64,000 bases of DNA from a virus (IMGVR_UViG_3300028048_000039:128001-192000), one strand, 5' to 3'; counted from the first letter of the stretch, positions 2,554 to 59,723 are shown. Made by a program: numbers and translations. Notes: a model not told the origin generated them from the sequence alone.

Positions 2554-2958
2554 ATGGATAAACAAGCAAAAGAAAAAATCAAGAACCTTATTGGAGAGGG
2601 TAAATTGTATGAAGTAGAGCTTTATAATGATGAAGCCGCCTTATATACAAACGAAAAAGATTTTAATTTTAGCTCTGACCTCATTCGTCTTACTTATTTT
2701 GATGAGGTGACTAATACTGAATCTCCTATTGTTAATCATATTAAAGAGTTTTTTGGGGATAATGAAGTTAGAATCATTGCCTATTCAGACCATTATAGTA
2801 ATATAGATGCGCACAAAACCCACTTCATGTTTAAGCGTTTTAATAAAATGTCATGTGTACCAGATACTGATTGCTATTATATCGTCTCAACACCGAACAA
2901 AAAAGGGAAGATTAAAAACTTTAACCTTCCCGATAGTATGTTCGTTCAAATTTTTTAA
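2554..2958 (+). CDS. Hypothetical protein
   Basis: 134-aa ORF behind the promoter at 2506-2537. Confidence 0.65.
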   Translation: MDKQAKEKIKNLIGEGKLYEVELYNDEAALYTNEKDFNFSSDLIRLTYFDEVTNTESPIVNHIKEFFGDNEVRIIAYSDHYSNIDAHKTHFMFKRFNKMSCVPDTDCYYIVSTPNKKGKIKNFNLPDSMFVQIF

Positions 2959-5204
2959 TTCTTATATTTAAAATTAGTGTTATATACCCCCTTTTCTCCA
3001 GACTTAGATGTTGGTAGTAAAATCGGTATTGCACCTAGTGTTACTTTCTTTGACATCTGTCCGAATGTAATCGGTATAAGATTTTCAATACCATTTTCTT
3101 TAGCAAGATAACATATATCTGAAAGTGTTGCTCCACCGGAAATATTGTCGTCAAATATAATAAAAATACTGTCTTTTATATTATCTGCTTCTTCGTCAAA
3201 TTTCTCGTCGTTCTTGCTATAATATCCAAGAAGACCCATCCTAACATTGTCAGGAAGTTTTTTGATTTCAAATTTTTTTGGTTCCCATCTTGCAAGGTCT
3301 ATTTGCTTGAATGGCTTTCCGTTAATATCTTTCATACCTTTTAAATATGGCTCCACTGTTTCCCAAGTGTCCTTGGAGCGGCTTTTAATAGACGGACCCT
3401 TTGAATATTTAATTGCAGACAAGAGTTTTTCGTCTTTTTGATGACTAATTTTACCAGTTTCGTAGTTATAATACTCACCTAATTCCAAAACGGCTTGATA
3501 AGTATTGTAATAATCCATATATAATTTTGCAAGCTTTTCTTCGTATGTTTCTACCTTTATTGCATTACGTCTATTTCTCAGGGCAATTATCTCCTCTGCT
3601 ATATCTGAAAGTTTTTCAATATATTCTTTTGCGTCATTAAATGCTTGAAATTTAGATAGCGCAGTATCTAACATTTGATTACTTGTTGCACTCACACCCT
3701 CTTTCTTTTTTGTGTAAGCAATAGAGTCATAATACTCCTGGTTTTTCTTAATAAAGGTCTTATCAAGTCTTAAGTTTGCTAAATCTTTATTGAAAATTTC
3801 TGGATTTATAACAGTTATGCCCTTTTTAAAGCCACCTATCGGCACCATTTTTTCTTTAAGTTCTTTTGCCATTTCTATATTAAAATTACTTGAAGAAGGC
3901 ACAGGATAAATAGCAACTCCCCTAAATTTAGCTGTAGGGTTTTTTTGTTTGATTTTCCCAATATGATAATTAACAACGGCGTTAACTTTTGCAGAAAATG
4001 TGTTAAGGAAATCGTTGAATTCTTGTTCTTTCATTCTCAATTCATATTCTTCTTCATGACCCATTTTGTCTTTTAGCGTAACATTAGTCTTTTTCTTGTT
4101 GTCAAAATAATTTTTGAAAAAGTGCATTACTCCAGTACCGTTTATTGATGTGATATTATACGACATAATGCCGCCTTTTAATGGCACTTCATATGTGTCA
4201 GCCCCAGAGGTATTATCCATCTTATCTGTTCGCAAAAAATCATTACCGGCATTTTTTAAACGTTTTCCCCAGGCTTTGCCTTTTTCATAATTAATTTGCA
4301 AAGTTTTATGCTTGCTATCCTGTGAGCCAATATAAGCATCTTCTTTCAATGCCTTTCTGGCGGCGTAGCCAGTTTTTGGGTGATTGATTAACCTGTCATA
4401 AAACCATTGTTTATTCGTGTCGTCCTTGGCCTTACTCCAGCCCTCAACCTCGCCCATCTTAGACATTACATTTTTGTGTGGATATTTTGGCTGGCCCTTA
4501 GTTGACATTCCTATATTAATTTGACTCTTCTCGTCATCTAAATCATACTCCCCTAAGAAATCATCAGTAAATTGATTTATCTTATTTGCAATATAACACC
4601 CGATAGCACCAGACCTCGATTTACCCTGATGGCAATGAACAATGAATTTGACATTTTCGCCGAATGTCAGGTTATTATCAACAAAAGTTTTCAACTCATT
4701 AGCCATTTCATTGGTGAAGTCCTTGCCGCCTTGATAATAGAAGGTCATTGACTTTCCAAATCGATTTTCACCTGGAGACAACTTTACAGCCGTTGCTGGC
4801 GTTTTTCCGTCAAAACCATCACCTTTAGGCATTTTGTTATCAAACTTCTGGTTGTCATCAAATTCAAGCTTGAGAACATTCTTATGATTTTGCTTAAAGA
4901 AATATTGTTTATTCGCATAATAATCATCAATGTCATCATCATTTCTCAATGGTAGTTCGGCTTTGACCCTATTGTAGGAATCACCAACCTCAATAAAACA
5001 ATACTGACCGGCAACTTTTTCAACATTACTGTCATTAACATTTAAACTTTTACATATTTCCCAAAAGTCTTCCAACGAACAAATAGTAACATTAGACTTC
5101 GTTGCCAACGTCTTAATTTCGTTGGTTTTTGACTCCATAAGATTTTCGATAACACTAGCCACCAATTTTCTTATATCGCTTTCGCTTATAATAACCTTTT
5201 TCAT
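2955..5204 (-). CDS. Leader-bearing fusion: Cys-based (PTP/DSP-type) phosphatase + type I phosphoribosyltransferase-like domain
   Basis: N-terminal 'IISESDIRKLVASVIENLMES' leader; 'VHCHQGKSRS' = HCxxGxxRS; 'YPVPSSSNFN' and 'IIFDDNISGGATL' PRPP-binding loop. Confidence 0.75.
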   Translation of the reverse strand: MKKVIISESDIRKLVASVIENLMESKTNEIKTLATKSNVTICSLEDFWEICKSLNVNDSNVEKVAGQYCFIEVGDSYNRVKAELPLRNDDDIDDYYANKQYFFKQNHKNVLKLEFDDNQKFDNKMPKGDGFDGKTPATAVKLSPGENRFGKSMTFYYQGGKDFTNEMANELKTFVDNNLTFGENVKFIVHCHQGKSRSGAIGCYIANKINQFTDDFLGEYDLDDEKSQINIGMSTKGQPKYPHKNVMSKMGEVEGWSKAKDDTNKQWFYDRLINHPKTGYAARKALKEDAYIGSQDSKHKTLQINYEKGKAWGKRLKNAGNDFLRTDKMDNTSGADTYEVPLKGGIMSYNITSINGTGVMHFFKNYFDNKKKTNVTLKDKMGHEEEYELRMKEQEFNDFLNTFSAKVNAVVNYHIGKIKQKNPTAKFRGVAIYPVPSSSNFNIEMAKELKEKMVPIGGFKKGITVINPEIFNKDLANLRLDKTFIKKNQEYYDSIAYTKKKEGVSATSNQMLDTALSKFQAFNDAKEYIEKLSDIAEEIIALRNRRNAIKVETYEEKLAKLYMDYYNTYQAVLELGEYYNYETGKISHQKDEKLLSAIKYSKGPSIKSRSKDTWETVEPYLKGMKDINGKPFKQIDLARWEPKKFEIKKLPDNVRMGLLGYYSKNDEKFDEEADNIKDSIFIIFDDNISGGATLSDICYLAKENGIENLIPITFGQMSKKVTLGAIPILLPTSKSGEKGVYNTNFKYKN

Positions 5205-5225
5205 AAAATTCTACATTTATTAACT

Positions 5226-5233
5226 ATAAATAG
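5226..5233 (-). promoter_or_regulatory. CTATTTAT motif, putative phage late promoter; representative of 8 intergenic copies
   Basis: Also at 8005(+), 53760(+), 56383(+), 57917(+), 59176(-), 59219(+), 60229(+); each ~16-50 nt upstream of a start codon. Confidence 0.7.
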
Positions 5234-5337
5234 TTAATTTTTCCCAAATTTTTTGTATATTTGCGTAAGAAGATGGAATAATCCATCTAGAAATCGTTTT
5301 GTATTTTAAGATAATTTTTGTATATTTGCAAAAAAAT

Positions 5338-5655
5338 ATGATGAAGAATATTGAAGAAATTAGGTTAGAAGCTGCCCTCACCTGTATTCAAGGGATACTT
5401 GAGGCCAAGGGTGGTATCATTGGTGAGGTAGACCCAGACATTGCGGTTAAGGAGGCATTTAGAATTGCAGATGCCTTCGTAAAGCATTATCAGGAGAAGT
5501 ACGTCCAACCAAAAGCAAACGAGGAAGCTGAGAAGCTGAGTAAGATTGCACAAGCTTGGTCTAAGGATTGGACTTCGGTAACAGTAAATGCAGAGGGATT
5601 AACTTATACAATAAACAACCCAGACAGAGAGAAAAATAAAGATAACATTATATGA
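5338..5655 (+). CDS. Hypothetical protein
   Basis: ORF-track start 5299 lies inside the promoter; ATG at 5338/5341 is more plausible. Confidence 0.65.
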   Translation: MMKNIEEIRLEAALTCIQGILEAKGGIIGEVDPDIAVKEAFRIADAFVKHYQEKYVQPKANEEAEKLSKIAQAWSKDWTSVTVNAEGLTYTINNPDREKNKDNII

Positions 5656-5903
5656 GAAAAGTAGTTAAAGAAGTTCCTGGTGACCCGTTCTATCAGGAGG
5701 AAAGTAAAAGTTATGTTGCCAAGTCTCATAGACCTTGGGAAACTTGTTATGTTGTAATTGCCAATGCTCATGGGGATTACCCTGAGATGTGTGGCGGAAT
5801 GTATGATACCATGGAGGAAGCCGAACAATCCCTTGCCTTTGAACCCTATGGCGGAAGGATTGAGGTGACCACTTGGGGAGAAATGACTGAAAGGAGCATA
5901 TAG
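5652..5903 (+). CDS. Hypothetical protein
   Basis: ATGA-coupled ORF in operon. Confidence 0.65.
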   Translation: MRKVVKEVPGDPFYQEESKSYVAKSHRPWETCYVVIANAHGDYPEMCGGMYDTMEEAEQSLAFEPYGGRIEVTTWGEMTERSI

Positions 5904-5905
5904 AT

Positions 5906-6178
5906 ATGAAAGAAGAAATTAAACCATTTGAAAATTGCAAATTTGCTGATGGCGAGATTTGCGTTGATACAGTAAGTGTGCAATACACACAGAATGGAGA
6001 CTGCACAGAATCAGAAGATGATGCACAGGAAATAACCATTTCTTCAAGGAATAACGGAATGGCGAGATTTATAAACATCAAGACGGGAGAAAACGGCTGG
6101 TCCATTGATGACATTTCCAGTTTAGCAAAGATTATTGATGATTTTAAAAAGAGAGCAGATATAAAAGATGAAAAATAA
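5906..6178 (+). CDS. Hypothetical protein
   Basis: Tightly packed in operon. Confidence 0.65.
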   Translation: MKEEIKPFENCKFADGEICVDTVSVQYTQNGDCTESEDDAQEITISSRNNGMARFINIKTGENGWSIDDISSLAKIIDDFKKRADIKDEK

Positions 6179-6953
6179 TATGAAATATTTGATTATAGGG
6201 GACGTCCATGGACGTGATTTTTGGAGAGAGCCCGTTAAAGAAACACTAAATAATAGTGATTTTGAAATAATTTTTTTGGGCGACTTTTTGGATTGTTACC
6301 CATTTGAATGGGACAAAGGGTTTGATTATGAAACCCATGCCCTTGAAAATTTTAAAGAGATAATTCAACTCAAGAAAGACAACCCAGACAGGATAATTCT
6401 TCTTCTAGGAAATCATGATTGTACATATGCTATCGGTACTCACATTTGTGATTGTCGTAGGGATAAAGCTCACTATGAGGAAATTGCAAATCTTTTTAAG
6501 AACAACAGAAATCTTCTCCAACTAGCAAAGGAAGACACCATCAACGGAAAGCATTTTATCTTTAGTCACGCTGGTATCCTGAAGGGTTGGGTAGAAAGAG
6601 TTTTTGGTGATGAAATGAACGAGGATGGCTTCAATGTGGTAAATGAACTAAACAAAGCGTGGGAGACAGACCACTACGGTATTTTGAACGCACTCGGTAT
6701 CTACGATAGTTTTCGTGGTTGGGGCGGTGGAAGATATGGCTCACCAGTATGGGCTGATATAAGAAGCTGGGCCGACAAGAGAGAGGGTGATACCTATGGT
6801 TATAACATTGTAGGGCATACTTATCTTAGGCAGGATGCTGTTGTGCTTCCAGTAATTGCTTGTCTTGATAGCCAGAAGGCATTTTACTTGGATGATGAAG
6901 GAAACATCAGGAAATACGATGATAATAAAATAATTGACATACCAAAAATTTAG
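6168..6953 (+). CDS. Calcineurin-like metallophosphoesterase
   Basis: GDVHG, GDFLD, GNHD, SHAG, GHT motifs. Confidence 0.9.
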   Translation: MKNNMKYLIIGDVHGRDFWREPVKETLNNSDFEIIFLGDFLDCYPFEWDKGFDYETHALENFKEIIQLKKDNPDRIILLLGNHDCTYAIGTHICDCRRDKAHYEEIANLFKNNRNLLQLAKEDTINGKHFIFSHAGILKGWVERVFGDEMNEDGFNVVNELNKAWETDHYGILNALGIYDSFRGWGGGRYGSPVWADIRSWADKREGDTYGYNIVGHTYLRQDAVVLPVIACLDSQKAFYLDDEGNIRKYDDNKIIDIPKI

Positions 6954-6958
6954 TTTTT

Positions 6959-7912
6959 ATGTTTAACAACGGATTAGAAGAATTTGTACAGGAGAGTTCA
7001 ATGGACTCAAGGAAAGCAGACAGCGACTTAATCATTAAGACTGCATCACAGTGGTCCGATATGGACGGAAGAATAATTACGGTATCCAATACAATGCCGA
7101 GACTTGAAAGGGGATATTACTCTATCAATATAAGCAATGATATTGGAATGTACTTTGAGAAGCAGAAGGTGGAACTGAATAAACTTTACCGCCTTCCGAA
7201 TATTGCAACTGACATCATTATGAATGACATTTCAAAGTTTTGGACTCTTGAAGAAACTTACAAGAAGTATCAGCGTGTCTTTAGAAGAAACTATCTTCTC
7301 TATTCTGCGCCAGGCACAGGAAAGACTTCGCTTATAAACCTTATGTGTCAGGAACTTATAGAGAAGTATGATGGGCTTGTATTTTCTTTAAGCACGGCAA
7401 CAGATATTCAACTTTTCCCCGATGCAATCAGAAGGATAAGGAAGATTGAGCCAGACAGAAAGATTATTGCAATCATTGAGGACATTGATACTTTCACTAA
7501 GGAGAGCAGTAGTCTTAATACTCTTCTCCTTAATATCCTTGACGGAAACTTGAAGTTGAGTGGAATCGTTACCATTGCCACGACAAACCATATTGAATAT
7601 CTTGAAGCAAGATACACCAATCGTCCGTCACGATTTGACAGGGTGGTTGAGTTCCCGCTTCCAAATGCCGAGAGCAGAAGGATGTTCATTGAGAAGACAG
7701 TTCTTCCTGATGACCTCAAGAAGATTAACCTTGACGAGTGGGTTGAGAAGACAGAAGGATTTACTATTGACCACATTAACGAACTGATACTCTTGTTCTT
7801 TGTGTTTGGGCATACTGAAGAAGAATCATTCGATACATTGTATGGAATGACAAAGACCAAGGGCGCTCTCAAGAATAAGACGAGTGTGTCAGCAAGCAGT
7901 ATCGGCTTCTAA
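6959..7912 (+). CDS. AAA+ ATPase
   Basis: Walker A SAPGTGKT, Walker B IIEDID, 'ATTN', second region of homology RPSRFD. Confidence 0.9.
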   Translation: MFNNGLEEFVQESSMDSRKADSDLIIKTASQWSDMDGRIITVSNTMPRLERGYYSINISNDIGMYFEKQKVELNKLYRLPNIATDIIMNDISKFWTLEETYKKYQRVFRRNYLLYSAPGTGKTSLINLMCQELIEKYDGLVFSLSTATDIQLFPDAIRRIRKIEPDRKIIAIIEDIDTFTKESSSLNTLLLNILDGNLKLSGIVTIATTNHIEYLEARYTNRPSRFDRVVEFPLPNAESRRMFIEKTVLPDDLKKINLDEWVEKTEGFTIDHINELILLFFVFGHTEEESFDTLYGMTKTKGALKNKTSVSASSIGF

Positions 7913-7987
7913 GAAATGGTATTTTATACCGAAATTCAGTAAATCAGGTTGGAAAAATCGCAAAAACTTCCAACCTGATTTTGTTTT
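7911..7987 (+). repeat. Dispersed ~77-bp hairpin element (terminator-like), copy 1
   Basis: 13-bp stem AATCAGGTTGGAA/TTCCAACCTGATT; related copies at 42479-42555 and 30870-30910. Confidence 0.75.
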
Positions 7988-8028
7988 TTTTTCTTTAAAT
8001 ATTACTATTTATGGAAAAAATAATTCTA

Positions 8029-9180
8029 ATGGCAAGAGCAAAGGTTAAATTAAGGTATACATTTGACACGAATAAGGTGCCTGAACCTGATATCATGGAA
8101 TTTGGAGAAATATACATCAATGCCAATTCAGGAACAGGAGCCTCTTTTCTCAGTGTAAAAAAAGAAAACAATACTATTGCTCAGTTTATGGAAAAAGATT
8201 ATGCTGATTCACAATATGCAGATAAATCTTTAGTTAATACCATTAATTTTAACTATATTAGTGGTGCTGTTATGAGCACAACTGCAGTTGTTCCAAGCGT
8301 GTCTAATAACATACTGACAATACCAACAATTGATTCAAGTGAGATTGATAATAAAATTAACACTTCATTATCACAACTTGACGGTAATGCGACAATAGCA
8401 AGCAAAAACGGAAAAACAGTAACTTTAAAGGCTTCTGTTTCTGAGACTGATGGTATAATATCCAATGGAACGCAAACGGACATTGTTCTTTCTGACGTAG
8501 CATCTACCGGTGAAGCATCTGATGTATCAGCAACATACCAAGATGCCACAGAAGACGTACAGAGTGTTATAACAAGTATTGACCATAGGGTAAAGACATT
8601 AGAGACTAATTCTACATTAAATACAATTGTTTGCGCAGCAAATGCATCAGAAATACCTGCAGGGGCAGTTTATAATGATGGTACAACAACAATCACTGGT
8701 ACCTTGGCTGCTTCACAGACAACGATGGGCGACATATATCTTGTTAAGAACGCTAATACCTATTATGAGTATATTACCACAAGAACAGGCCAAGAAGGTT
8801 CATATAATTATTCTTGGATAAATCTTGGTTCAACTTCAGTTGACTTATCTGGTTATATCAATAGTATTATAGTAAATGGGAAAACTTATACTGCAACAGG
8901 TAATGGAAATAGTGTAACATTGGATGATGTGCTAACAAATGTTGTAGGAGAAACTGAAGTTGCAAATGGAAATGCCGATTTTGTATCCGTAACGGCTACC
9001 AATGGGACAGCATCTTCAGGAAGTAAATCTTCAACGCTTCTTTCCAAAGTAAAAATACAAAGTGTTAGTGGAGCAACTTCTACTAATAATGGCCTTGCAT
9101 CATCTAATGACATTAGGGAATATGTTCAGGCGAATCTCACGACAATAAAAACTTGGACAGAATCTGATATAACAAATTAG
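8029..9180 (+). CDS. Putative virion structural / tail-fibre-like protein
   Basis: T/S/N/G-rich; N-terminal 'FGEIYIN' and 'YYEYI...W..LGSTSVDLSGY' motifs seen in phage fibres; follows CTATTTAT (track start 8011 is inside that motif). Confidence 0.6.
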   Translation: MARAKVKLRYTFDTNKVPEPDIMEFGEIYINANSGTGASFLSVKKENNTIAQFMEKDYADSQYADKSLVNTINFNYISGAVMSTTAVVPSVSNNILTIPTIDSSEIDNKINTSLSQLDGNATIASKNGKTVTLKASVSETDGIISNGTQTDIVLSDVASTGEASDVSATYQDATEDVQSVITSIDHRVKTLETNSTLNTIVCAANASEIPAGAVYNDGTTTITGTLAASQTTMGDIYLVKNANTYYEYITTRTGQEGSYNYSWINLGSTSVDLSGYINSIIVNGKTYTATGNGNSVTLDDVLTNVVGETEVANGNADFVSVTATNGTASSGSKSSTLLSKVKIQSVSGATSTNNGLASSNDIREYVQANLTTIKTWTESDITN

Positions 9181-9194
9181 AAAATAGTAAAGAA

Positions 9195-9509
9195 ATGAGT
9201 TTATATTTAGGACATACAAAAATAAAACAAATTTTCGCAGTATTCAATGATGGGGTTGACACTGATGTAACTGAATCCAATATCAGGGACGGTGTTAGAA
9301 TACTTGGTGTGGTCGGAAAGTTTACAGCAGACGGCACACAAACACCAGGAAATGATATTGCAACATCTTCTGATATAGTAGAAGGAAAATCTGCATGGTG
9401 TGACGGTGCTGAGGTGCAAGGTAATCTTATTGTACAACATTTCTACACGGGAAGTGACACTCCTGATTCTTCAATTGGTAATAATGGAGATATATTTTTA
9501 AAAGTTTAG
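9195..9509 (+). CDS. Putative tail-associated small protein
   Basis: 'NIRDGVRILGVVG', 'ATSSDIVEGKSAW', 'P.SSIGNNGDIFL' fibre-type motifs. Confidence 0.6.
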   Translation: MSLYLGHTKIKQIFAVFNDGVDTDVTESNIRDGVRILGVVGKFTADGTQTPGNDIATSSDIVEGKSAWCDGAEVQGNLIVQHFYTGSDTPDSSIGNNGDIFLKV

Positions 9510-9516
9510 TTAAGCT

Positions 9517-10236
9517 ATGATAAAAGACATTAAAAAAGCAATAGAAGCGGAAAAAAGATATCTTGTTGAAAAGATGAACGGAACTCAACCAAATATCTAT
9601 GATTATTTGGTTCCTTGTGGGTATGATAATCTTATTGAGTTTAATGCAGATAAAAAGGTTTATCTTTTAAAACAAATGAACCTTCCAATGGAACGAATTT
9701 TCATCACAAAGGAAAGTCTTGCAAGATGGGTAATACGTGCTACAGAGGGAAAAAGTTTCTTTGCTTCATCCGATACAGAAGATAGTTCATTGGGTACAGT
9801 CGCCATCGTAGGAAAGACGTTTGATGATGAAGAAAGATTTCTTGCTCATGGTGTTTATCCTGTTATATTTGATTACTTTAAAGGATGTATTATTACTGGT
9901 ATTAAAGATTTTAATTTTTGTTTTTGTGTTCCACGTAATTTGAATATAGAGACAACTGATGTGCTGTCATGGCTTAAGGCCTTTATTGAAAAAAAGAATG
10001 ATAATGTTGAAATAGACGGCAATGACATTTTGATTGACGGTAAGAAAGTTGTTGGAATGACAGGTATTAAAAACGACACGATGACATGCTACATTGTACA
10101 TGTTTCGCTTACTGATTATAATGATTTAATTTATGAACTTTGCCCGCCACATGGAGGAAAAGAACCAGGATATATTAAAAATATAACAAAGAAAGAATTT
10201 GAAGAAGAAGTACAATCATGGCTACAAAACAAGTAA
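9517..10236 (+). CDS. Lipoate-protein ligase (BPL/LplA/LipB fold)-like protein
   Basis: 'GNDILIDGKKVVG' matches LplA 'RNDILVDGKKISG'; 'GCIITGIKDFNFCF' aligns with 'GGAVYHD.GNLNFSF'. Confidence 0.6.
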   Translation: MIKDIKKAIEAEKRYLVEKMNGTQPNIYDYLVPCGYDNLIEFNADKKVYLLKQMNLPMERIFITKESLARWVIRATEGKSFFASSDTEDSSLGTVAIVGKTFDDEERFLAHGVYPVIFDYFKGCIITGIKDFNFCFCVPRNLNIETTDVLSWLKAFIEKKNDNVEIDGNDILIDGKKVVGMTGIKNDTMTCYIVHVSLTDYNDLIYELCPPHGGKEPGYIKNITKKEFEEEVQSWLQNK

Positions 10237-21437: not shown

Positions 21438-21926
21438 ATGAAGGCATTAGTTAACAAACATAATCATCAGATACGGATAACTGCACCAGAGATAACTATT
21501 GAAGATGCCCCTTATAACAATCATCAATATGTTTATTGGATACCTGCCATTAACCAAATATATAATCCAATAGACTGGACTCTCGTTGAGGAAGAAGAGA
21601 ATATCAGTTGGGCAGACAGACTGAAAGAAAGACTTTCCAAGATGTCACAGGAAGAAATTGACAAGGCATTTGAAGAAATGGGCGGAGACAATGACGAGTC
21701 TCCTACTCTTGAAGAATATCTTAAAGCAGCATATCATTCTCCAATTGAAACTGAACCAGTGGACTTAGAGAAAGCGGCAGAAAAATATGCAGACAAGCAC
21801 GGATTTAGAGTTCCTTATGATGGTTCTAACAACTTCTACGATGATGTAGATGTTAAAGCATCTTTAGAAGGTTTCAAGGCAGGAGCCAAGTGGATGGCGG
21901 AACAAATAAAAGGAGGTAGCAAATGA
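21438..21926 (+). CDS. Family F (NK...IRITAPEI...WTLVEEE) mosaic protein
   Basis: N-module shared with 39919, 40325, 52161; C-module identical to that in 40325. Confidence 0.75.
   Translation: MKALVNKHNHQIRITAPEITIEDAPYNNHQYVYWIPAINQIYNPIDWTLVEEEENISWADRLKERLSKMSQEEIDKAFEEMGGDNDESPTLEEYLKAAYHSPIETEPVDLEKAAEKYADKHGFRVPYDGSNNFYDDVDVKASLEGFKAGAKWMAEQIKGGSK
21762..21905 (+). repeat. 144-bp intragenic direct repeat (second copy at 40880-41023)
   Basis: 4 mismatches by manual comparison; encodes DLEKAAEKYADKHGF...GFKAGAKWM. Confidence 0.9.
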
Positions 21927-39918: not shown

Positions 39919-40392
39919 ATGAAGATGCTAATAAACAAAGCAAATCCTGCAATCAGGATAACTGCACCAGAGATAGAGGAAGATAAGACCTGTTATTATG
40001 TCGCAGAACTTGCTATTGGTAAGTATAACTGGACTCTTGTTGAGGAAGAAGAAAATATTGATAATATGCCTATTTATTTCAAAATTCCAATAACTACAAG
40101 ATACAGTGATGATTTGTCTTACTTCGATATGAAATTTACTCATGTTGTGAAAACAAATAAATTTTGTGAAAGGGATATTTATGGGGATGAATGCTGTTGT
40201 TATTATGTATCTTCTATATATAAAGCGGTAAAAGATAAAGTTTGGCTTTTTAGCGAACTTGCAGAATGTGGATATGTACCAACTATAGAAGATTTTATAA
40301 GAGGATTATTTAAAGAAATGAAAGATGAAAACGCTGATAAACAAAGCAAATCCTGCAATCAGGATAACCGCACCAGAGATAGAGTCTTATAG
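39919..40392 (+). CDS. Family F paralog
   Basis: MKMLINKANPAIRITAPEI; ~50-bp repeat with the start of 40325. Confidence 0.7.
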   Translation: MKMLINKANPAIRITAPEIEEDKTCYYVAELAIGKYNWTLVEEEENIDNMPIYFKIPITTRYSDDLSYFDMKFTHVVKTNKFCERDIYGDECCCYYVSSIYKAVKDKVWLFSELAECGYVPTIEDFIRGLFKEMKDENADKQSKSCNQDNRTRDRVL

Positions 40393-41161
40393 AAAGTTTT
40401 ATACTTTACCAGATAAAGACTTTCATCATTTATTCAAAATGGAAACTTGGACTCTCGTTGAGGAAGAGCCAGAAATGACAAAGTACTTGAGATTTGGAGA
40501 CATTCCAGAAAACGGAAAATCAAAAATATGGAGAGGAGAAGAATGTGTTGGTGAGGAAGAAGGGGTTTCTGTATATGAAATAAGATTGGATAAAGACAAA
40601 CATATCTCTATATGTCTTCCGTTCCCTTTTCATAGAGATACATTAGACACACTATGTGTTTTGACTAAATATGATAATCGTCCTTGCTATACTGTTACAG
40701 GAGAATATGTCGGCAAAGGAACTGATGGCGAACCTCTTATCAGTAATGTACAAATAGAGGAAGAATTTCCTAAAATAATTTCTGATGAAAAGATGAAACA
40801 AATGGGAGAAGAAATTTCCAAAGCGGCAGTTGATAACATTAGAGAGCGGTTCAATAAGATAGTTGAACCTGAACTAGTTGACTTAGAGAAAGCGGCAGAA
40901 GAATATGCAGACAAGCACGGATTTAGAGTTCCTTATGATGGTTCTAACAACTTCTACGATGATGTAGATGTTAAAGCATCTTTAGAAGGTTTCAAGGCAG
41001 GCGCCAGGTGGATGGAGGAACAAGGAGAATCAAATAATTGGAAACCAACCAAAGAGCAGATAGAATATCTTTCAAAAGCAATCTTAACTCTTGGAGAAGA
41101 AGGGGATGGCAAGACTACTGCCGTATTAAATGGGTTAAGAAAAGATTTGAAAAATTTATAA
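40325..41161 (+). CDS. Family F mosaic protein
   Basis: F N-module + 'YLRFGDIPENGKS...EEGVSVY' domain + 144-bp repeat module + WKPTKEQ module. Confidence 0.75.
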   Translation: MKTLINKANPAIRITAPEIESYRKFYTLPDKDFHHLFKMETWTLVEEEPEMTKYLRFGDIPENGKSKIWRGEECVGEEEGVSVYEIRLDKDKHISICLPFPFHRDTLDTLCVLTKYDNRPCYTVTGEYVGKGTDGEPLISNVQIEEEFPKIISDEKMKQMGEEISKAAVDNIRERFNKIVEPELVDLEKAAEEYADKHGFRVPYDGSNNFYDDVDVKASLEGFKAGARWMEEQGESNNWKPTKEQIEYLSKAILTLGEEGDGKTTAVLNGLRKDLKNL

Positions 41162-51015: not shown

Positions 51016-51017
51016 TT

Positions 51018-51743: not shown

Positions 51744-51773
51744 TAATAATAAATAAAAAAAGGAATAATTGAC

Positions 51774-52154
51774 ATGGAAAACATATTTGAGGAAGCGAGA
51801 AGGATTATTTCAAAACTGATAGATGAGAAGAAAGTTTCCGGGGATGAAGCACTCATCCTTATGGAAGCCCTCATCTGTAATGGTGGCGAATGTACTTGGG
51901 GCGAGAAAGAACATGTGGAGAAGGCTTCAACTGAAGTTACCGAGGAGAAGAGACCAGAGAAAATTCCGGAAACCTTTGACGAGTGGAAGAATTACCCAAA
52001 TGGTTACACAGTCATTGATGATAGAGGTGTCTACACTGACCCAATTACCGGAAAGTCTTATCCACAGCACAGTTACAAGTACATACAGAACCCATACAAC
52101 CCTATCAGGACCTATCTCGATGGGAAAAAGATAACAGAGAATTCGCATAATTAA
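51774..52154 (+). CDS. Hypothetical protein
   Basis: 126-aa ORF. Confidence 0.65.
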   Translation: MENIFEEARRIISKLIDEKKVSGDEALILMEALICNGGECTWGEKEHVEKASTEVTEEKRPEKIPETFDEWKNYPNGYTVIDDRGVYTDPITGKSYPQHSYKYIQNPYNPIRTYLDGKKITENSHN

Positions 52155-52160
52155 GAAATT

Positions 52161-52313
52161 ATGACATTAATTAACAAAGAAGACAAAAGGATTAAGGTAA
52201 TTGTACCAAAGGATAAGATTACAATTAAGAAACGATACGCCAGGGTGGTCGATATCTTCGACGTATTCAGATTTGATGAATGGGACCTGGTGGAAGATGA
52301 AGAGAATTCCTGA
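52161..52313 (+). CDS. Stand-alone family F N-module (MTLINK...WDLVED)
   Basis: 50 codons resembling the F N-terminus. Confidence 0.5.
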   Translation: MTLINKEDKRIKVIVPKDKITIKKRYARVVDIFDVFRFDEWDLVEDEENS

Positions 52314-52397
52314 CGAAATTGTCGGGAATTTTTGTTTTTAAGAAAATTTTTGTATATTTACAGTGTAAATTTGATTATTAATTTAAAACATTATTTT

Positions 52398-53276
52398 ATG
52401 AGTACAATGATTAGTTTTAGAGATAACAATATCTCCGAGAAATTTCTTACGAATGACGAAGTTAAGCGGCTTTGCCCATCAGCATTTAAGACTGCTCCTA
52501 CAAATCCAGATGTTTCTGAAAAATATACCTATGCGAACACAGCTACGGTAATCAATGACCTTGAGAAACTTGGTTGGAGGCCGGTACAGGCAAAGCAGTG
52601 TAGAAAGAAGGAAGGCTCTAAGGGAATTAGAAGCTTCCATATGATTGCACTGCAAAACGAGAATGTGAAAATAGTAGACAGAGATAAGGATGGTGGGGAA
52701 ACCATCGATTCATACCCAAGAATAATACTCACCAACAGTCACGATGGTTTTAACTCGTTCATGTTCAGGGTTGGATTGATACGTTTATGCTGCAGTAATG
52801 GACTTTGTGTTGGTGATAGTATGTTGTCAGAATTTTCAATTCGTCACATAAATTATACATTTGAACGACTTAGGGAAGTGGTTAGTAAGGTTATTGAAAA
52901 TATACCGAACATTGTTAATACAATGAACCGCATGAAAAAAGTAATCCTTAATGACGAACAAAAGCATAATATTGCAAAAGAAATGATTAAAATTAGGAAA
53001 GGTATTGGCCTTAATGCAAAGGTCGATGTTGATGACGACACTATTTCTGATATTCTAACCCCACTTAGACCTGAAGATGATGGCAATAGCCTCTGGAACG
53101 TTTTTAATGTTTGTCAGGAAAAGATGACTAAGGGGTTGTTTTCTCTTCCAGGAAAAAATAATAAGTACCGCAAACAACGAAGGATAACGTCAATTAAGAG
53201 GGATATAGACTACAATTCAAGATTATGGGATGTAGCGGCCAAATATCTTCCTGAATATGTAACCGTAGATGCGTAA
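52398..53276 (+). CDS. DUF932/DUF945 family protein
   Basis: 'S.KY....T..VI..L...GW', 'LTNSHDG..SF.F..G..RL.CSNGL', 'LWNVFN..QE'. Confidence 0.8.
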   Translation: MSTMISFRDNNISEKFLTNDEVKRLCPSAFKTAPTNPDVSEKYTYANTATVINDLEKLGWRPVQAKQCRKKEGSKGIRSFHMIALQNENVKIVDRDKDGGETIDSYPRIILTNSHDGFNSFMFRVGLIRLCCSNGLCVGDSMLSEFSIRHINYTFERLREVVSKVIENIPNIVNTMNRMKKVILNDEQKHNIAKEMIKIRKGIGLNAKVDVDDDTISDILTPLRPEDDGNSLWNVFNVCQEKMTKGLFSLPGKNNKYRKQRRITSIKRDIDYNSRLWDVAAKYLPEYVTVDA

Positions 53277-53688
53277 TGGTATGGAAGAGTTGCTGTTATT
53301 CCCCAACGAGGAAAACGATGAATGGATTAATAGGTACAATGAACTTGTAGTTGAAGTAAAGGCAAAGGAAGCCGAGAACAAGGCCCTCAAGGAGGCCCAA
53401 CCAAAGAGGAATGATAAGGAACCATCCATTTGGTCTGGTGAAAGCATTGGCATCCATCACATCATTCCAAAGAAAATTCGTCCAGACCTTGTAAAGGATA
53501 AGAACAACTTACTCTATGTATCGATTGCAGACCATTGTCGTCTTCATTACTATCTATGGAAGTCAAATCCAATTTACGCCAAGCACTTCTGGTTCATCCT
53601 GATTGCTGCAAGGAAATGGGGCTGGTGGGACTTGCCAGGTGGTGATGAAGAATATGAAATGATTAAAAATGACTTAAAGAAGAAATAA
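53269..53688 (+). CDS. HNH-type nuclease domain protein
   Basis: 'HHIIPK...NNL..V...DH...H..L'. Confidence 0.6.
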   Translation: MRNGMEELLLFPNEENDEWINRYNELVVEVKAKEAENKALKEAQPKRNDKEPSIWSGESIGIHHIIPKKIRPDLVKDKNNLLYVSIADHCRLHYYLWKSNPIYAKHFWFILIAARKWGWWDLPGGDEEYEMIKNDLKKK

Positions 53689-53796
53689 ATCTTATGCGGG
53701 TAGTCGCCTATGGGTAGGAAATCCTCACTAATTTAGTGGGGTTTTTCTTTTATTAACTACTATTTATTATATAATAAAAGAGTATTTTAGTTAGGG

Positions 53797-55932
53797 ATGA
53801 AAACTTATATTACAGAGAGCGATATAAAGAACATGGTTTCTGAGTGTGTGAGGCTTCTTACTGAGGATGCCGAGAGCAAGAATATGAATCGTGCAAGGAA
53901 GTATCTTGAGGCAAATGGTGTTGAGACACATGAAGAAAGGCATAAGATAATTACAGATGTTCGTGAAGAAGTCCCTAATGCAAGGCTCTTAAATTGTAAA
54001 TTCCTCTTGGGCGTCACTAGGATGTACTTCGAAAATCAACTTACCCCAAAGGTCACTGCAATGCTTAACAAAGCTCTCGAAGTCATTGTAACACAAGGGC
54101 ATGAAGGAGAATTTGACTTTAATCTCAATGGCGAAACTGCTGTTTCACTTGTTAATAAATTCAAAGATGAAATACAGAGACTGCTCGATGCTGATAAGGA
54201 GAGAGCAGATGGAACGAAGAGGAAGAGAAATGAAGATTACACGATAATACCAATAAACAGCACCCGTGAGGCTTCGAGATACAGCAGATACACAAGTTGG
54301 TGTGTTACCACAAGTCAGGATATGTATAATAGGTACACAAATGAAGGGCTCGGAAGGTTCTATTTCTGCCTCAGGAAGGGATTTGAGACTGAAACTAGGA
54401 TTCATGGCGATGGTTGTCCTCTTGATAGCTATGGATTATCAATGATTGCAGTCTCAATTAATATGGATGGTTCTGTAAATACCGTAACATGTAGATGGAA
54501 CCATGACAATGGTGGAAATGACCATATTATGACCGTTGAACAGCTTGAAGACCTCCTTGGTGTTAATTTCTATCAAACATTCCTTCCATATACAAAGGAA
54601 GAACTTCATGCAAAGGGCGCCATCTCATTTGAAGATATTCAAGAAATGTTGGACAAGAAAGACCCTGCCATATGGAAAAATGTTCATGATTACATTGGGG
54701 ATTATAAGATAATAACTTTCCAAAGGAAGAGAAACTTCATTAATCCAGAGGGTAAGTTAATGATGCCGATTTGGGCTAATGCGACCGAAGAGGAGGGCCT
54801 TATGACTAGACAAGAGAAGACAATTGATAGACCAATTGTTATTTGGGTTGGTGAAAAGAGAAATTTCTTCTCGCTGAAAAAGGGAAGGTTAATATATGGT
54901 AACTTTGCTAACATTGATGGTTGGTTTACCTATACTGGTGTTTTCCGGGAAGTTAATGGTGTTGCTGAGGTAAGGAAGAACGGCAAGAGCAACTTATTAA
55001 CCACAGTTGGTACATTCCTCTCCGATGTTTGGTTTGATAGGATTATAGATGTTAGGAAAACTGCTGCCGTTATAGGGATAGGTGAACATAAAAATATATT
55101 CTACTTTAAAGATAAGAGTGTATTATTTGGTTCCATAGATAACCCAGAAGCATGGCCACGTGATGTTTCCATAACTGATAATGGTTCAATTATAGTGGTT
55201 AATGCTGAGGGAAAACAGAACATCTATGACCCAGAGAAGAAGAGATTCATTTCTGAAGTATGGGCTGACTCTGTTTATGAAATTGGAGAAGGTCATTATA
55301 AGGTGACTGACAGGACGGAAACGGAAAATGGCAATTACAGGTACGTTTCAAACATCGTTAACGGAACGACAGGAGAATTAATGTACGGAAGAAGTGATAA
55401 TCCTAATACCTGGCTTGACCTTGTTCATAAGTTTGTTGATGGTCTCTGTGTCATTAAGAAGGGAGGAAAGTCTAATTATATTAATAGAGACGGTAAGGTA
55501 GTCTTTGGTGAGAAAGATGACCCTAGGACTTGGTTTGACCATGCATTTAATCTTGAGGACGATGGCCAATCTGGAAGTTGCGCTGCCGTCTTTAAGGATA
55601 ATATGTTCAACATCATTGATAATAAAGGACGATTATTCTTTGGTAATCCTAATGATACAAGCACCTGGCTTGATGATGTATCATATGATATGATTAACTT
55701 TGGCGTCTTGGTTGTAAGCAAAAATAACATGTTTAACTTTATGTTGAACAAATATCCAGGAGAAGTTCTCTTTGGTGAAAAGGAGAATATAGGTACCTGG
55801 TTTGATAATGCATATTATGGCAGCCATAATGATACCCTCCAAGCATTGGGAAAGACAGTAAATGGTAATGTTGAATGGTATACAGTCAATAATGGCGGAT
55901 TACTAAGAAAAATCAGTTTGTATATAAGTTAG
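53797..55932 (+). CDS. Leader-bearing protein with 'WC' domain and C-terminal WG-like beta repeats
   Basis: 'ITESDIKNMVSECVRLLTE' leader; 'TSWCV..MYNRY'; repeated 'N.I...G...FG...TWFD'. Confidence 0.7.
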   Translation: MKTYITESDIKNMVSECVRLLTEDAESKNMNRARKYLEANGVETHEERHKIITDVREEVPNARLLNCKFLLGVTRMYFENQLTPKVTAMLNKALEVIVTQGHEGEFDFNLNGETAVSLVNKFKDEIQRLLDADKERADGTKRKRNEDYTIIPINSTREASRYSRYTSWCVTTSQDMYNRYTNEGLGRFYFCLRKGFETETRIHGDGCPLDSYGLSMIAVSINMDGSVNTVTCRWNHDNGGNDHIMTVEQLEDLLGVNFYQTFLPYTKEELHAKGAISFEDIQEMLDKKDPAIWKNVHDYIGDYKIITFQRKRNFINPEGKLMMPIWANATEEEGLMTRQEKTIDRPIVIWVGEKRNFFSLKKGRLIYGNFANIDGWFTYTGVFREVNGVAEVRKNGKSNLLTTVGTFLSDVWFDRIIDVRKTAAVIGIGEHKNIFYFKDKSVLFGSIDNPEAWPRDVSITDNGSIIVVNAEGKQNIYDPEKKRFISEVWADSVYEIGEGHYKVTDRTETENGNYRYVSNIVNGTTGELMYGRSDNPNTWLDLVHKFVDGLCVIKKGGKSNYINRDGKVVFGEKDDPRTWFDHAFNLEDDGQSGSCAAVFKDNMFNIIDNKGRLFFGNPNDTSTWLDDVSYDMINFGVLVVSKNNMFNFMLNKYPGEVLFGEKENIGTWFDNAYYGSHNDTLQALGKTVNGNVEWYTVNNGGLLRKISLYIS

Positions 55933-55989
55933 CAAGAAAAATAATTGGTTCAAAGATTACACCTGGCTCAATAAGAAGAAATAACCCAT

Positions 55990-56380
55990 TAGCCCACCAA
56001 TTTCGGTGGTTTTTTATTGAAAAATACCTCAATTTTTGCCCAAAATTTACCATTTTTTACCATAACCAGTTTCCTGAGTGATTTTCAGGAAATTAACTGC
56101 GCAAAATCATTGCGTTCTCTATAAGACCTCAATTCCGGGACAAGACAATCCCCTTCTGAACCCCGTAAAACCCGGTTTTTCCCTACGTAATTCCATTGCG
56201 CACAACATTCTCATTGCGTAGATACGTAATTAATGTGCGTAAAAACCCCTTAAAATGGTCATTTTTGCGTGTGAAGCATTTTCTGAAGTGAAAAAAGAGG
56301 GCCCCTCATTGCATTTCCCGGATTTAACCAGCAACAGGAATAAATCTTGACGGGTTTTTCTTAACTTTCTTCACCTTGCA
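55990..56380 (+). repeat. Non-coding tract with TTGCG and CCGG motif clusters
   Basis: CATTGCG at ~56108, 56194, 56212; CCGG-containing words; no ORF. Confidence 0.5.
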
Positions 56381-56433
56381 TACTATTTATAAGATGTAAT
56401 TACAAAATAATAAAAATAATAAAACGTTAACGT

Positions 56434-56955
56434 ATGACAAAGAAAATAATGATAAATGAGGCGACATTAAAGAAGATTGTTGCTGAATCAGTAAGAAGAG
56501 TCCTCAAGGAGCACGATGACTGGATGATTGGTGACGTTGAAGATGAAGAAACCGATGTCCCATTTGGAGAAGTTAGAAGAAATGTTATCAATGGAAAAAT
56601 CGAACAGCCAAAGGAAATAAAGTATTACCTCAGCATCGTCTACAGAGATATTGTAAAGGACAGAAACTTTAATCGTTGGTATGGTCAGGGATACAATGAT
56701 GACCTGAAGGTTATTAAGGACCTTGCACTTAGCTATGTTAGTGGCTGGAAGAGACAGGCATACATCTACGCTTACAAGAAGATGATAGACTTTAAGAAGA
56801 TTGTAAATGCCGCTGCTGAGGAACAGGGTGTTACAAAAGTTCCAATTGACAAGGGCGAAGCAAAACCTGACATCAGAGAGTCAAGAAAGGCCAAGAAGTC
56901 AAGAAAGAAGGTTAATGAGGGCCTTAAGAAGAGAATGATGAAAAATCGCAAGTAA
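56434..56955 (+). CDS. Leader-bearing small protein
   Basis: 'INEATLKKIVAESVRRVLKE'; CTATTTAT upstream; own terminator 57001-57036. Confidence 0.75.
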   Translation: MTKKIMINEATLKKIVAESVRRVLKEHDDWMIGDVEDEETDVPFGEVRRNVINGKIEQPKEIKYYLSIVYRDIVKDRNFNRWYGQGYNDDLKVIKDLALSYVSGWKRQAYIYAYKKMIDFKKIVNAAAEEQGVTKVPIDKGEAKPDIRESRKAKKSRKKVNEGLKKRMMKNRK

Positions 56956-57092
56956 TCATCCAATGAGACTAAAAGAGACATTGTTTAAACATAGAGAGAG
57001 TCCCACCAGGAATTTCCTGATGGGATTTTCTTTTTTAACTTATTTTTTGTATATTAAGAGCAAAATCAAATAATGATGATGAATGAAAGATT

Positions 57093-57470
57093 ATGACAAG
57101 GGAGGAGGCGAGACAATATTATAACAACACCGAACTAGGATGGATTAGGGAAGGTAACTTTTCAAATAAGGCAGAGAATATCATTGACGTGGTGCTTTAC
57201 CTTAATGAACAGGGGAGGTTGGATGAGATGATGCCTGAGGTGGAAGGAAGAAGCGGTTTCTTGACAATGCTCAGTCAGGTAATTGTTAACTTAAATAATG
57301 AAATGCCAAGGATAAAAGACATGGAAAAGTTCATCACTTATGTCAGGGAAAGGGCTAAGGAAAGCTATCCAAAGTATGTTGGTATTCCAAATGATTGTGC
57401 TTTAACAGCATTTGACATTAGCAGGGAGTTACGCAAGATAATAAGGAATGATAAGGATGAACAGTTATGA
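57093..57470 (+). CDS. Family G hypothetical protein
   Basis: 'IKDMEKFITY...AKESY'. Confidence 0.65.
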   Translation: MTREEARQYYNNTELGWIREGNFSNKAENIIDVVLYLNEQGRLDEMMPEVEGRSGFLTMLSQVIVNLNNEMPRIKDMEKFITYVRERAKESYPKYVGIPNDCALTAFDISRELRKIIRNDKDEQL

Positions 57471-57850
57471 TGAATGCAAGGGAACTGCTTGACATGTACA
57501 AAGACAAAACCTGTCCAAAAAGTGTATATAATGATAACCTTCAGAATGTGTATGATGCCTTGGAGGAAAATGGGCTTCTTGAAAAGAGAATCTTCGAGGG
57601 AAATCGCACCTTGGCGAAGTTTCTCTTTGAAGTCCTCTGCTGTCTTCAATTTTCTGAAAAGAACTATGGTAAAAAATCATTCCGACTGAAAGACCCAAGG
57701 AAGTTCATAGAATGGGCAACGTCTTTTGCAAAGGAAGAATATCTCTCTCGCATCAATAAAGGACAAGAGTGGGAAGATGCATTGGTTGTCGCCACAGCGG
57801 AGACAATAAAGAAACTATACAATACGCTTCACAATAAGAATAATGATTAA
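57467..57850 (+). CDS. Family G hypothetical protein
   Basis: 'LKDPRKFIEW...AKEEYL'. Confidence 0.7.
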   Translation: MMNARELLDMYKDKTCPKSVYNDNLQNVYDALEENGLLEKRIFEGNRTLAKFLFEVLCCLQFSEKNYGKKSFRLKDPRKFIEWATSFAKEEYLSRINKGQEWEDALVVATAETIKKLYNTLHNKNND

Positions 57851-57956
57851 AGAACCATAGGAAAGAGATAATTGCCCGTTGGATTATTCTCTAACGGGTT
57901 TTTTTGTCTCTGACTGCTATTTATATTAAAAATAATAGATAAAAGATAAAAGAGAC

Positions 57957-58367
57957 ATGACAAAGGTTAAGAAAATAAAGATAAATGAAGCAACATTGAA
58001 CAAGATTGTTGCTGAAAGCGTAAAGAAGGTTTTATCAGAAGTAACAGACTATGGAAATAATATATTTGGTAGTGGCAATATGAATCCAACATATAAAGAA
58101 AACCATGGGGTTGATAGAGATGAATATTATGAGTTACGTTTTTTAAGAAAAAACATTATTGAAAAATTTGCTAATCCTGAAGACGAGAATCTAAATTATG
58201 CAAAAGATGGAATTAATATCTATTTGTATGGTGATATTGAAGAAAGACAAGATGATTTGCAAAAGATAGAAAAGTATTGTAGTGAGAAGGGGGTTATGTG
58301 TGATTTTAAGAATGTAAAGTATGGGATTAATAATTCTCCTGTTGTGAAAATAACATTTAAGAAATAA
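57957..58367 (+). CDS. Leader-bearing small protein
   Basis: 'INEATLNKIVAESVKKVLSE'; CTATTTAT upstream; terminator 58395-58424. Confidence 0.75.
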   Translation: MTKVKKIKINEATLNKIVAESVKKVLSEVTDYGNNIFGSGNMNPTYKENHGVDRDEYYELRFLRKNIIEKFANPEDENLNYAKDGINIYLYGDIEERQDDLQKIEKYCSEKGVMCDFKNVKYGINNSPVVKITFKK

Positions 58368-58749
58368 TAGGGGGGATATATTAATTGATAATAGAAACGC
58401 ATCCTATTGGGATGCGTTTTTTTATTATAAATGGATTTTTGATGATTTTTAGGGGTGAATTATTGATGGTGAGAAGGGGCTAAAAACCCGTTTCAAACTG
58501 TGTCGTATCTCAATTTTCTTACAAAAAATTTTTTAATTTTCCAAATTTTTTACCCACTTTTTTTACTACAATTATAAATATTTCCCTCCCCATTTCTTCG
58601 CCAATCTTACAGTTTTCAGAAAACACCCCTATCGATGCTAATATTCATCAATCTATTTTTTACCCAACAATTACAATTTCTCATCAAAAGTTTTATTTTC
58701 CTTACAATTCTTAATTTTGCTAAGTGGCAACTTTTCGGCAAATGACATT

Positions 58750-58845
58750 ATTTCCCTAACCATCGTCCCCGGAGTAGTACCATTTTCCTAATCACCATTC
58801 CCGGAAAAACTATTACTTCGCCAAACGTCACCATTCCCGGAACAA
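58750..58845 (+). repeat. Degenerate ~33-36-bp tandem repeat (x3)
   Basis: TCACCATTCCCGGAA at 58792 and 58828; related CCATCGTCCCCGGA at 58760. Confidence 0.6.
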
Positions 58846-58922
58846 TGCCATGAATGAAAGAGAAATGGGCCAGGAGAACTTCCTGACCCAAGCCAATCTT
58901 AATTAATTAAGAAATTTTTTCA

Positions 58923-59153
58923 TTAATTCCCTTCTGGTTCATCCTTATCGGACTCAGTGTTTCCAGAATATTTCCCATATCCATAGGTTTTATCAAGCCT
59001 ACCGCAACCCTGAATGAGGAAAAATATTGCGATTATGAACAAAGCAATGTTCGCAAAACTTGTAATAAAGGTAACTGTGGTTGCCAAGTAGAAACAGCCA
59101 CAGGAGAGGAGAAATACTCCCAAGGTAATTAATTTTTCTAAGAATTGCATCAT
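58923..59153 (-). CDS. Small two-TM membrane protein
   Basis: CTATTTAT upstream (59176-59183); two hydrophobic helices. Confidence 0.6.
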   Translation of the reverse strand: MMQFLEKLITLGVFLLSCGCFYLATTVTFITSFANIALFIIAIFFLIQGCGRLDKTYGYGKYSGNTESDKDEPEGN

Positions 59154-59276
59154 AAAGTATTAAGTTTTAGTGTATATAAATAGTTTAAAGAAGCGGAAAG
59201 GTTTTTGGCGAATAGTTGCTATTTATAATACACACTAGTGTTAAAAATAACGTTTTTATAAAAGCTTTTATTAATT

Positions 59277-59723
59277 ATGAAAAAGATAAGATTGAATGAA
59301 ACGACGCTTAAGAAAATCGTTGCTGAAAGTGTTGTGAAAGCAATGAAGATGCTTAATGAGATGGACCAGGATGTCTACAACAGGGCTGCTGACAAGGCAA
59401 AGGAACTTGGACAGCATCAGAGAGCAATGAGGTTTAATAATCATGCAGCAAGTATTGCCAGGCGTAGGGCTACTGACTATGTTGCTGATGTTAACAGGAA
59501 TTATATCACTTACAAGACCGTTACAGGAAAGGAATGGACTATTAACGCCAAAGTAAGAACTGATGAGAGAAATTATATTTATAATGTAAATGACCTTGCA
59601 GAGAATGGTGTTCCTGCTTCTCTCCGTACAACTGATGTTCGCACTGCCAAGTATGTTGCTGACTGGTGCAACAGGTATTCAACCAACAAGAAAGATTTCA
59701 CGAAGAATGACTTCATTGCGTAG
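59277..59723 (+). CDS. Leader-bearing small protein
   Basis: 'LNETTLKKIVAESVVKAMKMLNE'; CTATTTAT upstream; terminator 59747-59785. Confidence 0.75.
   Translation: MKKIRLNETTLKKIVAESVVKAMKMLNEMDQDVYNRAADKAKELGQHQRAMRFNNHAASIARRRATDYVADVNRNYITYKTVTGKEWTINAKVRTDERNYIYNVNDLAENGVPASLRTTDVRTAKYVADWCNRYSTNKKDFTKNDFIA

Follow-up and report, generated by a model that had tools for sequence, protein, structure and literature searches.

A short peptide leader opens five otherwise unrelated proteins encoded in a 64,000-nucleotide stretch of viral DNA (bases 128001-192000 of the record IMGVR_UViG_3300028048_000039, the whole stretch being called the window below). We propose that it is probably a head-targeting leader resembling the capsid-targeting sequence (CTS) of phage T4, that the prohead protease would cut it off, and that it is employed in addition as a linker. 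The source record, of 344,580 bp with 37% G+C and an estimated completeness of 93%, is that of an uncultured T4-like jumbo phage of the bovine gut or rumen, and near-identical DNA is held by gut metagenomes of cattle and sheep. Positions refer to the window unless the genome is named.

The five proteins, numbered 1 to 5, are encoded at 2955..5204 on the minus strand and at 53797..55932, 56434..56955, 57957..58367 and 59277..59723 on the plus strand. Their translations all open with one amphipathic leader of about 25-26 residues, whose pattern runs from (I/L)-(S/T/N)-E through hydrophobic residues spaced i/i+3/i+4 and a (V/I)-x-E-S-(V/I) segment to a closing (L/I)-x-E at residues 20-28, and BLASTP among the five bodies stripped of this leader finds no mutual similarity. 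Both observations agree with the initial annotation of the window, which had described five unrelated proteins with a common N-terminal leader of about 25 residues and had suggested that a profile of it be run over the full genome and its relatives. A six-frame scan of the whole genome with a hidden Markov model (HMM) of the leader, over a search space of 358,000 residues, yields 16 matches at E<1e-4 and 3 marginal ones, then none better than E~1, and further copies are found in relatives. The separation is clean, and the leader motif is therefore specific and carried by about 19 proteins.

The conservation of the leader was measured on 315 copies, taken from the best 150 of 8,324 profile matches. 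Each leader contains three [LIV]-x-E triplets. The first has L or I at position 7 in 95% of these copies and E at position 9 in 99%, the second has V or I at position 16 in 98% and E at position 18 in 86%, and the third has L or I at position 24 in 92% and E at position 26 in 97%. Conservation ends after position 26, the terminal triplet being present as [LIVM]-x-E in 314 of the 315 copies. All of the best 150 matches hold two or three copies, of which 133 are N-terminal, 158 internal and 24 C-terminal. When 51 leader proteins are clustered by their bodies, 40 clusters result, and one short leader on unrelated bodies, closed by a protease motif, is the arrangement found in T4-type systems.

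In the genome, the copies are mostly N-terminal, with the exception of three tandem paralogs that bear the module at the C-terminus and of two proteins in which it is internal, at domain junctions. The strictly N-terminal leader of the initial annotation is thus not upheld. Nor is protein 2 unique, as six paralogs of it are encoded elsewhere in the genome. These seven leader proteins share one body domain, with the module at the N-terminus in four and at the C-terminus in three, so that the module is portable. The three tandem paralogs, of about 815 residues each, lie at genome positions 216424-223856 (L009:6424-13856) behind one late promoter; their module is at the extreme C-terminus, and each begins with a minimal M-x-L-N-E.

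The enzyme that would remove such a leader is encoded in the same genome, among T4-type head and tail genes that include a gp20-family portal (matching phrog_213), a large terminase, a tail sheath and a collagen-like fibre. The prohead protease gene (genome 253408-254139) matches Peptidase_S77 (PF03420) with an E-value of 3.8e-29; its product shares 31% identity with T4 gp21 and retains the GELNHP and GVSSRG blocks. The capsid protein belongs to the gp23 family (PF07068 match), its closest match in a cultured phage having only 44% identity over half of the protein. The gene order, small core protein, protease, acidic scaffold and capsid protein, mirrors T4 genes 67/68-21-22-23, and the gp21-family protease is found inside a gp20/gp22/gp23-type head module as it is in T4-type systems. 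In the capsid protein, an L-R-E|A aligns with the L-T-E|A at which T4 gp23 is cleaved, and each of the 44 relatives in the alignment retains the triplet [LIM]-x-E. From this maturation site we infer, by homology, that the protease would have a specificity for (L/I)-x-E, which is the motif that closes the leader.

Several other features of the head module deserve description. The capsid protein (L011:8180-10201; genome 256180-258204) has 674 residues compared with the 521 of T4 gp23, and contains an insertion at about residues 110-400 for which T4 has no counterpart. Long runs of Asp/Glu-rich repeats occur in the scaffold (L011:6269-8143) and in a second head-module protein (L011:733-2448), and helices that loosely resemble the leader are present near the N-terminus of the former and near the C-terminus of the latter.

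The family of protein 1 provides an independent test of the reading of the triplet as a protease site. The PRTase-like (phosphoribosyltransferase-like) body of this protein, residues 289-749, has hundreds of homologues, and an [LIVM]-x-E is found exactly before the start of the conserved body in about 46 of 53 one-domain forms and in 35 of 36 two-domain forms. What lies upstream differs from one homologue to another: a variable leader, a phosphatase-like domain, an InPase domain (PF18823) or a cREC_REC domain (PF20274). In the AlphaFold2 (AF2) model of protein 1, whose mean pLDDT is 87, the leader forms a helix at residues 8-36 and the only disordered stretch is at 279-287, followed by an L-K-E that ends at residue 288.

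The leader genes appear to be expressed with the structural genes. As the initial annotation had indicated, the motif CTATTTAT precedes all five leader genes of the window, at 29-58 nucleotides (nt) from the motif start to the ATG; the 10 copies seen in the window, compared with 5.4 expected, are not a significant excess, 6 of 100 shuffles reaching 10. Over the genome, 59 of 78 copies are intergenic, intergenic DNA making up about 7% of the sequence, and nearly all lie 20-60 nt before a start on the same strand. The extended consensus of these copies is ACTATTTAT, which precedes the terminase, portal, tail sheath, collagen-like fibre and adaptor-like genes and two homing endonuclease genes. 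ACTATTTAT/CTATTTAT is the general late promoter of the phage, serving about 55 genes, and not a mark of leader genes. The association put forward by the initial annotation stands as an enrichment, the promoter being present on 9 of 19 leader genes and on 52 of the 417 genes of the whole set (p 1.3e-4), and falls as a specific one; a tenth leader gene gains the motif once the start of the gene at genome position 216424 is corrected. About half of the leader genes have a promoter copy of their own, and most of the others stand in late operons behind portal or fibre genes, three of them directly 3' of the portal gene. In the relatives, a variant, ATATTTAT, is found before 20 of 32 leader genes against a background of 31% (p 2.5e-4).

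The other transcriptional claims of the initial annotation fare unequally. Terminator-like hairpins are indeed present 3' of four of the five leader genes, the gene at 56434 being followed by none until 57874. Matches to sigma-70-like promoters are at chance level and therefore cannot show that early promoters are absent, as had been stated for the leader genes. The operon at 8011 had been labelled tail-fibre-like, a label left unconfirmed by its genes, which have no PHROG matches and one of which carries a Listeria-Bacteroides repeat. RNA evidence consists of contigs only, from two rumen RNA runs of one sample. Each of the genes at 53797, 56434, 57957 and 59277 has a contig piece of its own, which starts 20-30 nt past the motif and stops at the stop codon or terminator; a DNA run shows no interruption over the same region. 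Since transcript ends cannot be proven from contigs, this is only a weak hint of stand-alone transcripts. No contig of the RNA runs covers 57117-57718, a gap that proves nothing by itself. At 8005-8012 and at genome position 103654, the late motif overlaps the called ATG (CTATTTATG), so that the true starts are probably further downstream. A common extended form of the motif, TATTTATA, seen for instance at 56383-56391, is on the coding strand here; its reverse complement is TATAAATA, the late promoter of T4, which is probably a coincidence.

The leader recurs in other uncultured phages. Among 80 related loci collected by their capsid protein, 18 hold 37 leader copies, 32 of which are within 40 residues of the frame start. 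Whole-record searches of five related phages of 345-412 kb return 16, 19, 8, 0 and 13 copies, and 12 copies are found in an uncultured phage of 484 kb. When 1.84 billion cluster representatives are searched exhaustively with the profile, 8,324 proteins match at E<=0.001, of which 372 are at E<=1e-10. At E<=0.01 the profile finds nothing in T4, Microcystis phage Mel-JY01, a Flavobacterium immutovirus or Ralstonia phage RsoM2USA. Megablast of positions 53000-60000 against GenBank phages gives no match, nor does tblastn of the PRTase-like body against the same phages, and therefore no cultured carrier is known. A homologue search with residues 1-40 of protein 3 returned the query only, its word index being too coarse for a short motif.

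The model that we favour combines these observations. The leader genes would be transcribed late from the ACTATTTAT promoter, alongside the structural genes, and the leader would tie each protein to the scaffolding core during the building of the prohead. The gp21-family (S77) prohead protease would then cut after the three [LIV]-x-E triplets, the last of which would be the border of the body, and the mature proteins would be freed inside the head, be carried in the virion and exit together with the DNA when a cell is infected. Where it stands between domains or at a C-terminus, the same module would act as a cleavable linker, by which polyproteins would be cut into separate enzymes. The cleavable capsid-targeting tag of the initial annotation is retained in this model, with the S77 protease, the L-x-E|A of the capsid, the nearly invariant end of the leader and the 40 body clusters in its favour, and its strictly N-terminal form is given up. 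The further proposal that any cargo could be loaded and injected in this way is an inference and, put so broadly, overstated.

A number of observations weigh against this model. Similarity between the leader and the T4 CTS is not detectable, as judged by the lack of a profile match in T4, and the leader is about 2.5 times longer. One close relative, of 345 kb, has no leader copy at E<=0.01, and no carrier is found among the cultured phages searched (GenBank phages, T4 and three cultured T4-like phages). Helices that are amphipathic and rich in Glu often hold [LIV]-x-E, so that the motif could in part reflect helix chemistry, and repeated modules inside small proteins are not needed for targeting alone. 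In protein 1, the last leader site lies inside a predicted helix of the AF2 model. The isoelectric points (pI) of the bodies are mixed, whereas those of T4 IPII and IPIII are uniformly basic, and pI is therefore uninformative on the likeness to T4 internal proteins. A complex prediction of scaffold with leader scored 0.02 against a mark of 0.32 and is not used as evidence either way.

Some of these points lend themselves to another interpretation, which we consider unlikely: the module would be only a protease-cleavable propeptide or linker, or a scaffold-like filler, and packaging would be set by other features of the proteins. Such a module might hold enzymes inactive, or joined, until the head matures. 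The even spacing of its three [LIV]-x-E triplets, its placement at internal junctions and C-termini, its presence in 2-3 copies in many small proteins, beyond what targeting needs, and the loosely similar helices in the N-terminus of the scaffold and in acidic head proteins would all suit this role; however, it leaves unexplained why a whole N-terminal helix of 26 residues stands on single-domain proteins of 40 unrelated families, and why residues outside the triplets (L at position 12, I/V at 15-16, S-V at 19-20) are equally conserved. That the helix is never cleaved and is instead a general module of interaction or oligomerisation, with a hub protein of the phage or the host, a chaperone or a membrane as possible partner, is a reading to which we give a small probability. 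A predicted helical and amphipathic leader that occurs at either end of proteins and has no similarity to the T4 CTS would be expected from it, and the [LIV]-x-E would be the by-product of an acidic helix, but the Glu is invariant at 97-99% at two positions and never replaced by Asp or Gln, and the leader ends exactly at the border of the conserved body. Moreover, the leader is enriched on late genes and beside head genes and, among the genomes examined, is found only in phages with T4-type heads.

It is very improbable, finally, that the similarity lies at the DNA level or is due to chance, as it would if the leader were a recombination cassette, a translation-initiation element or a stretch of low complexity. 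The genome is A+T-rich and the leaders begin with Lys-rich codons, as such an origin would allow. Identical leader residues, however, use the same codon in 46.5% of pairs compared with 42.3% expected from codon usage, which argues for selection on the peptide and not on the DNA, and a DNA repeat or recombination cassette was rejected on this ground. Nor would chance explain 8,324 clusters at E<=0.001 in 1.84 billion proteins, or a six-frame space of 358,000 residues in which no off-frame match is better than E~1.

Beyond the present phage, the leader might belong to a universal "load, then cut" code shared by T4-like jumbo phages of a very large group that has no cultured member, a tentative idea to which we attach somewhat less than even confidence. 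Its mechanistic side, to be held with the same reserve, is that the helix, at either terminus or between domains, would bring any protein to the core of the prohead and would set the cuts of polyproteins. If this were true, the thousands of families represented by the 8,324 clusters would form a catalogue of injected effectors that can be read from sequence. Should the tag work as in the model that we favour, a simple sequence rule would list the head-carried, DNA-delivered proteins of a large group of uncultured jumbo phages of the rumen and of the environment. The listed set would likely be rich in counter-defence enzymes that are otherwise invisible without virion proteomics. The CTS principle, which in T4 serves 4-5 proteins, would be extended to about 20 in each genome, with cleavable polyproteins in addition, and a second, longer tag would become available for loading foreign proteins into the T4-like capsids of laboratory phages.

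The cargo proteins of the window are arranged as follows. Protein 1, of 749 residues, consists of the leader (HMM 27 bits; about 24 codons at 5133..5204 on the minus strand, ending in L-M-E), a domain resembling dual-specificity phosphatases, a disordered linker and the PRTase-like body. On the same strand, its CTATTTAT promoter core is at 5226..5233, with 29 nt between the motif start and the ATG, and a terminator-like hairpin with a 12-bp stem and a T run is at 2905..2931, 24 nt past the stop. The protein has an HC-x5-R phosphatase signature, a weak DSPc match in Pfam and a PRPP-loop-like motif. Foldseek gives weak matches to the phosphatases MKP5 and PTEN and to OPRTase, none of them at E<=0.001, and phmmer against PDB sequences gives no match. 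The PHROGs hold nothing for proteins 2-5 and only families of unknown function for protein 1. The cargo named in the initial annotation, a phosphatase-PRTase and a repeat protein, is confirmed for the WG repeats of protein 2, and the assignment of protein 1 is a reasonable one which the weak matches do not firmly establish.

Protein 2 follows its promoter core (53760..53767, plus strand; an RNA-run contig starts at 53799) and contains, in 711 residues, the leader with L-T-E at residue 23, the conserved domain common to the six paralogs and the WG beta-repeats; a terminator-like hairpin lies past it at 55994..56009 on the plus strand. A protein of 1999 residues encoded just upstream of the head module (genome 242640-248639; L010:13640-19636) has an N-terminal region homologous to protein 2 and at least seven WG repeats, and is likely to be a polyprotein cargo.

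All features of proteins 3 to 5 for which a strand is given are on the plus strand. Protein 3 (173 residues; leader ending in L-K-E at residue 26, HMM 54 bits) has its promoter core at 56383..56390 and is covered by an RNA-run contig at 56420-56977; its body is basic (pI 9.6) and matches no known family. A terminator-like hairpin at 57874-57899 is upstream of the promoter core of protein 4, at 57917..57924. Protein 4 itself, of 136 residues with a leader that ends in L-S-E at residue 28, is covered by an RNA-run contig at 57970-58368 and followed by a terminator-like hairpin at 58393..58421. For protein 5 (148 residues; L-N-E at residue 28; basic body, pI 9.5), the promoter core is at 59219..59226, the RNA-run contig at 59252-59780 and the terminator-like hairpin at 59747..59775. 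Elsewhere in the genome, a leader protein encoded beside the portal gene contains a hydrophobic segment followed by a glucosaminidase domain.

Two further features of the window were noted. Between proteins 4 and 5, a very hydrophobic two-segment protein of 76 residues is encoded at 58923-59153 on the minus strand with its own promoter core at 59176-59183 on that strand; no other RNA-run contigs in this region come near its depth, which reaches 285 in one of the runs. A small late membrane protein, for example a holin-like factor, is a possible identity. An exact direct repeat of 100 bp (21784-21883 and 40902-41001) is inside two otherwise dissimilar genes, at 21438-21926 and 40325-41161.

The proposed system can be compared with several known ones. 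Encapsulin cargo-loading peptides, which belong to non-viral compartments, bind an HK97-fold shell directly and stay uncut. As is proposed for the leader, they are short portable peptides which, from either terminus, address unrelated enzymes into an HK97-fold shell, but they are unrelated to it in sequence, are not removed and are bound to the shell. The likeness to polyvalent proteins lies in the cargo. As characterised by Iyer et al. 2017 (PMC5512222), these proteins occur in phages and conjugative elements; those of phages with a portal and terminase contain 2-15 disparate effector domains per polypeptide, and PRTase, InPase and peptidoglycan-hydrolase modules are predicted to be virion-packaged parts of them. 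Like some of the present proteins, they would be multidomain effectors that travel with the DNA, and their modules include PRTase, InPase, peptidoglycan hydrolase and metallopeptidase. InPase or cREC_REC domains are present in homologues of protein 1, and the glucosaminidase and PRTase/InPase cargo would be of kinds for which packaging has already been predicted there (PMC5512222). Only the multidomain members, namely protein 1 with its phosphatase-like and PRTase-like domains and the 1999-residue paralog of protein 2, have the composition of polyvalent proteins, proteins 3-5 being single-domain. In PMC5512222, processing is proposed to occur through embedded zincin peptidases, and a term search finds neither the word leader nor the description of one, whereas the junctions here bear a prohead-protease motif and most of the tagged proteins are single-domain.

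In the giant phages phiKZ, 201phi2-1 and SPN3US, the propeptides of head and ejection proteins are cut at (S/A/G)-x-E by gp175/gp245, proteases of family S80 (PMC5694885, PMC10052503). These are likewise jumbo phages with many head-loaded proteins, a gp21-related protease that cuts after Glu, multi-site propeptides and paralog families among the cargo; they differ by another cut motif, another protease family, the lack of a single leader consensus across the cargo and a capsid module that is not of the gp23/gp20 T4 type.

The closest comparison is with T4 itself, where the internal proteins and Alt enter the scaffolding core by means of the CTS, which is then removed by gp21 (PMC3012670; PMC5694885). 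The CTS is borne by IPI, IPII, IPIII and Alt, according to Mullaney and Black 1996 as cited in PMC5694885, and the internal proteins are otherwise highly diverse and defence-related (PMC3012670; PMC5694885). Alt is reported to be processed at both ends, and the several cut sites that a propeptide may contain allow small fragments to leave the head (PMC5694885). The same elements recur here: a short leader common to unrelated, probably late proteins and ending in (L/I)-x-E, a gp21-family protease, gp23/gp20-type head genes in the T4 order, cargo that includes likely counter-defence or host-modifying enzymes and, as in Alt and the giant phages, putative processing at both ends with several sites per propeptide. 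The differences are of scale and of form. The leader has about 26 residues and three triplets, compared with about 10 residues and one site in T4, and its profile has no match there, so that it would be an analogue and not a detectable homologue of the CTS. In addition, the module is also found C-terminally, internally, as an inter-domain linker and repeated 2-3 times per protein, and about 19 proteins per genome are tagged, in contrast to 4-5 in T4. The idea is thus one already known from T4, of which the leader described here would be an expanded version.

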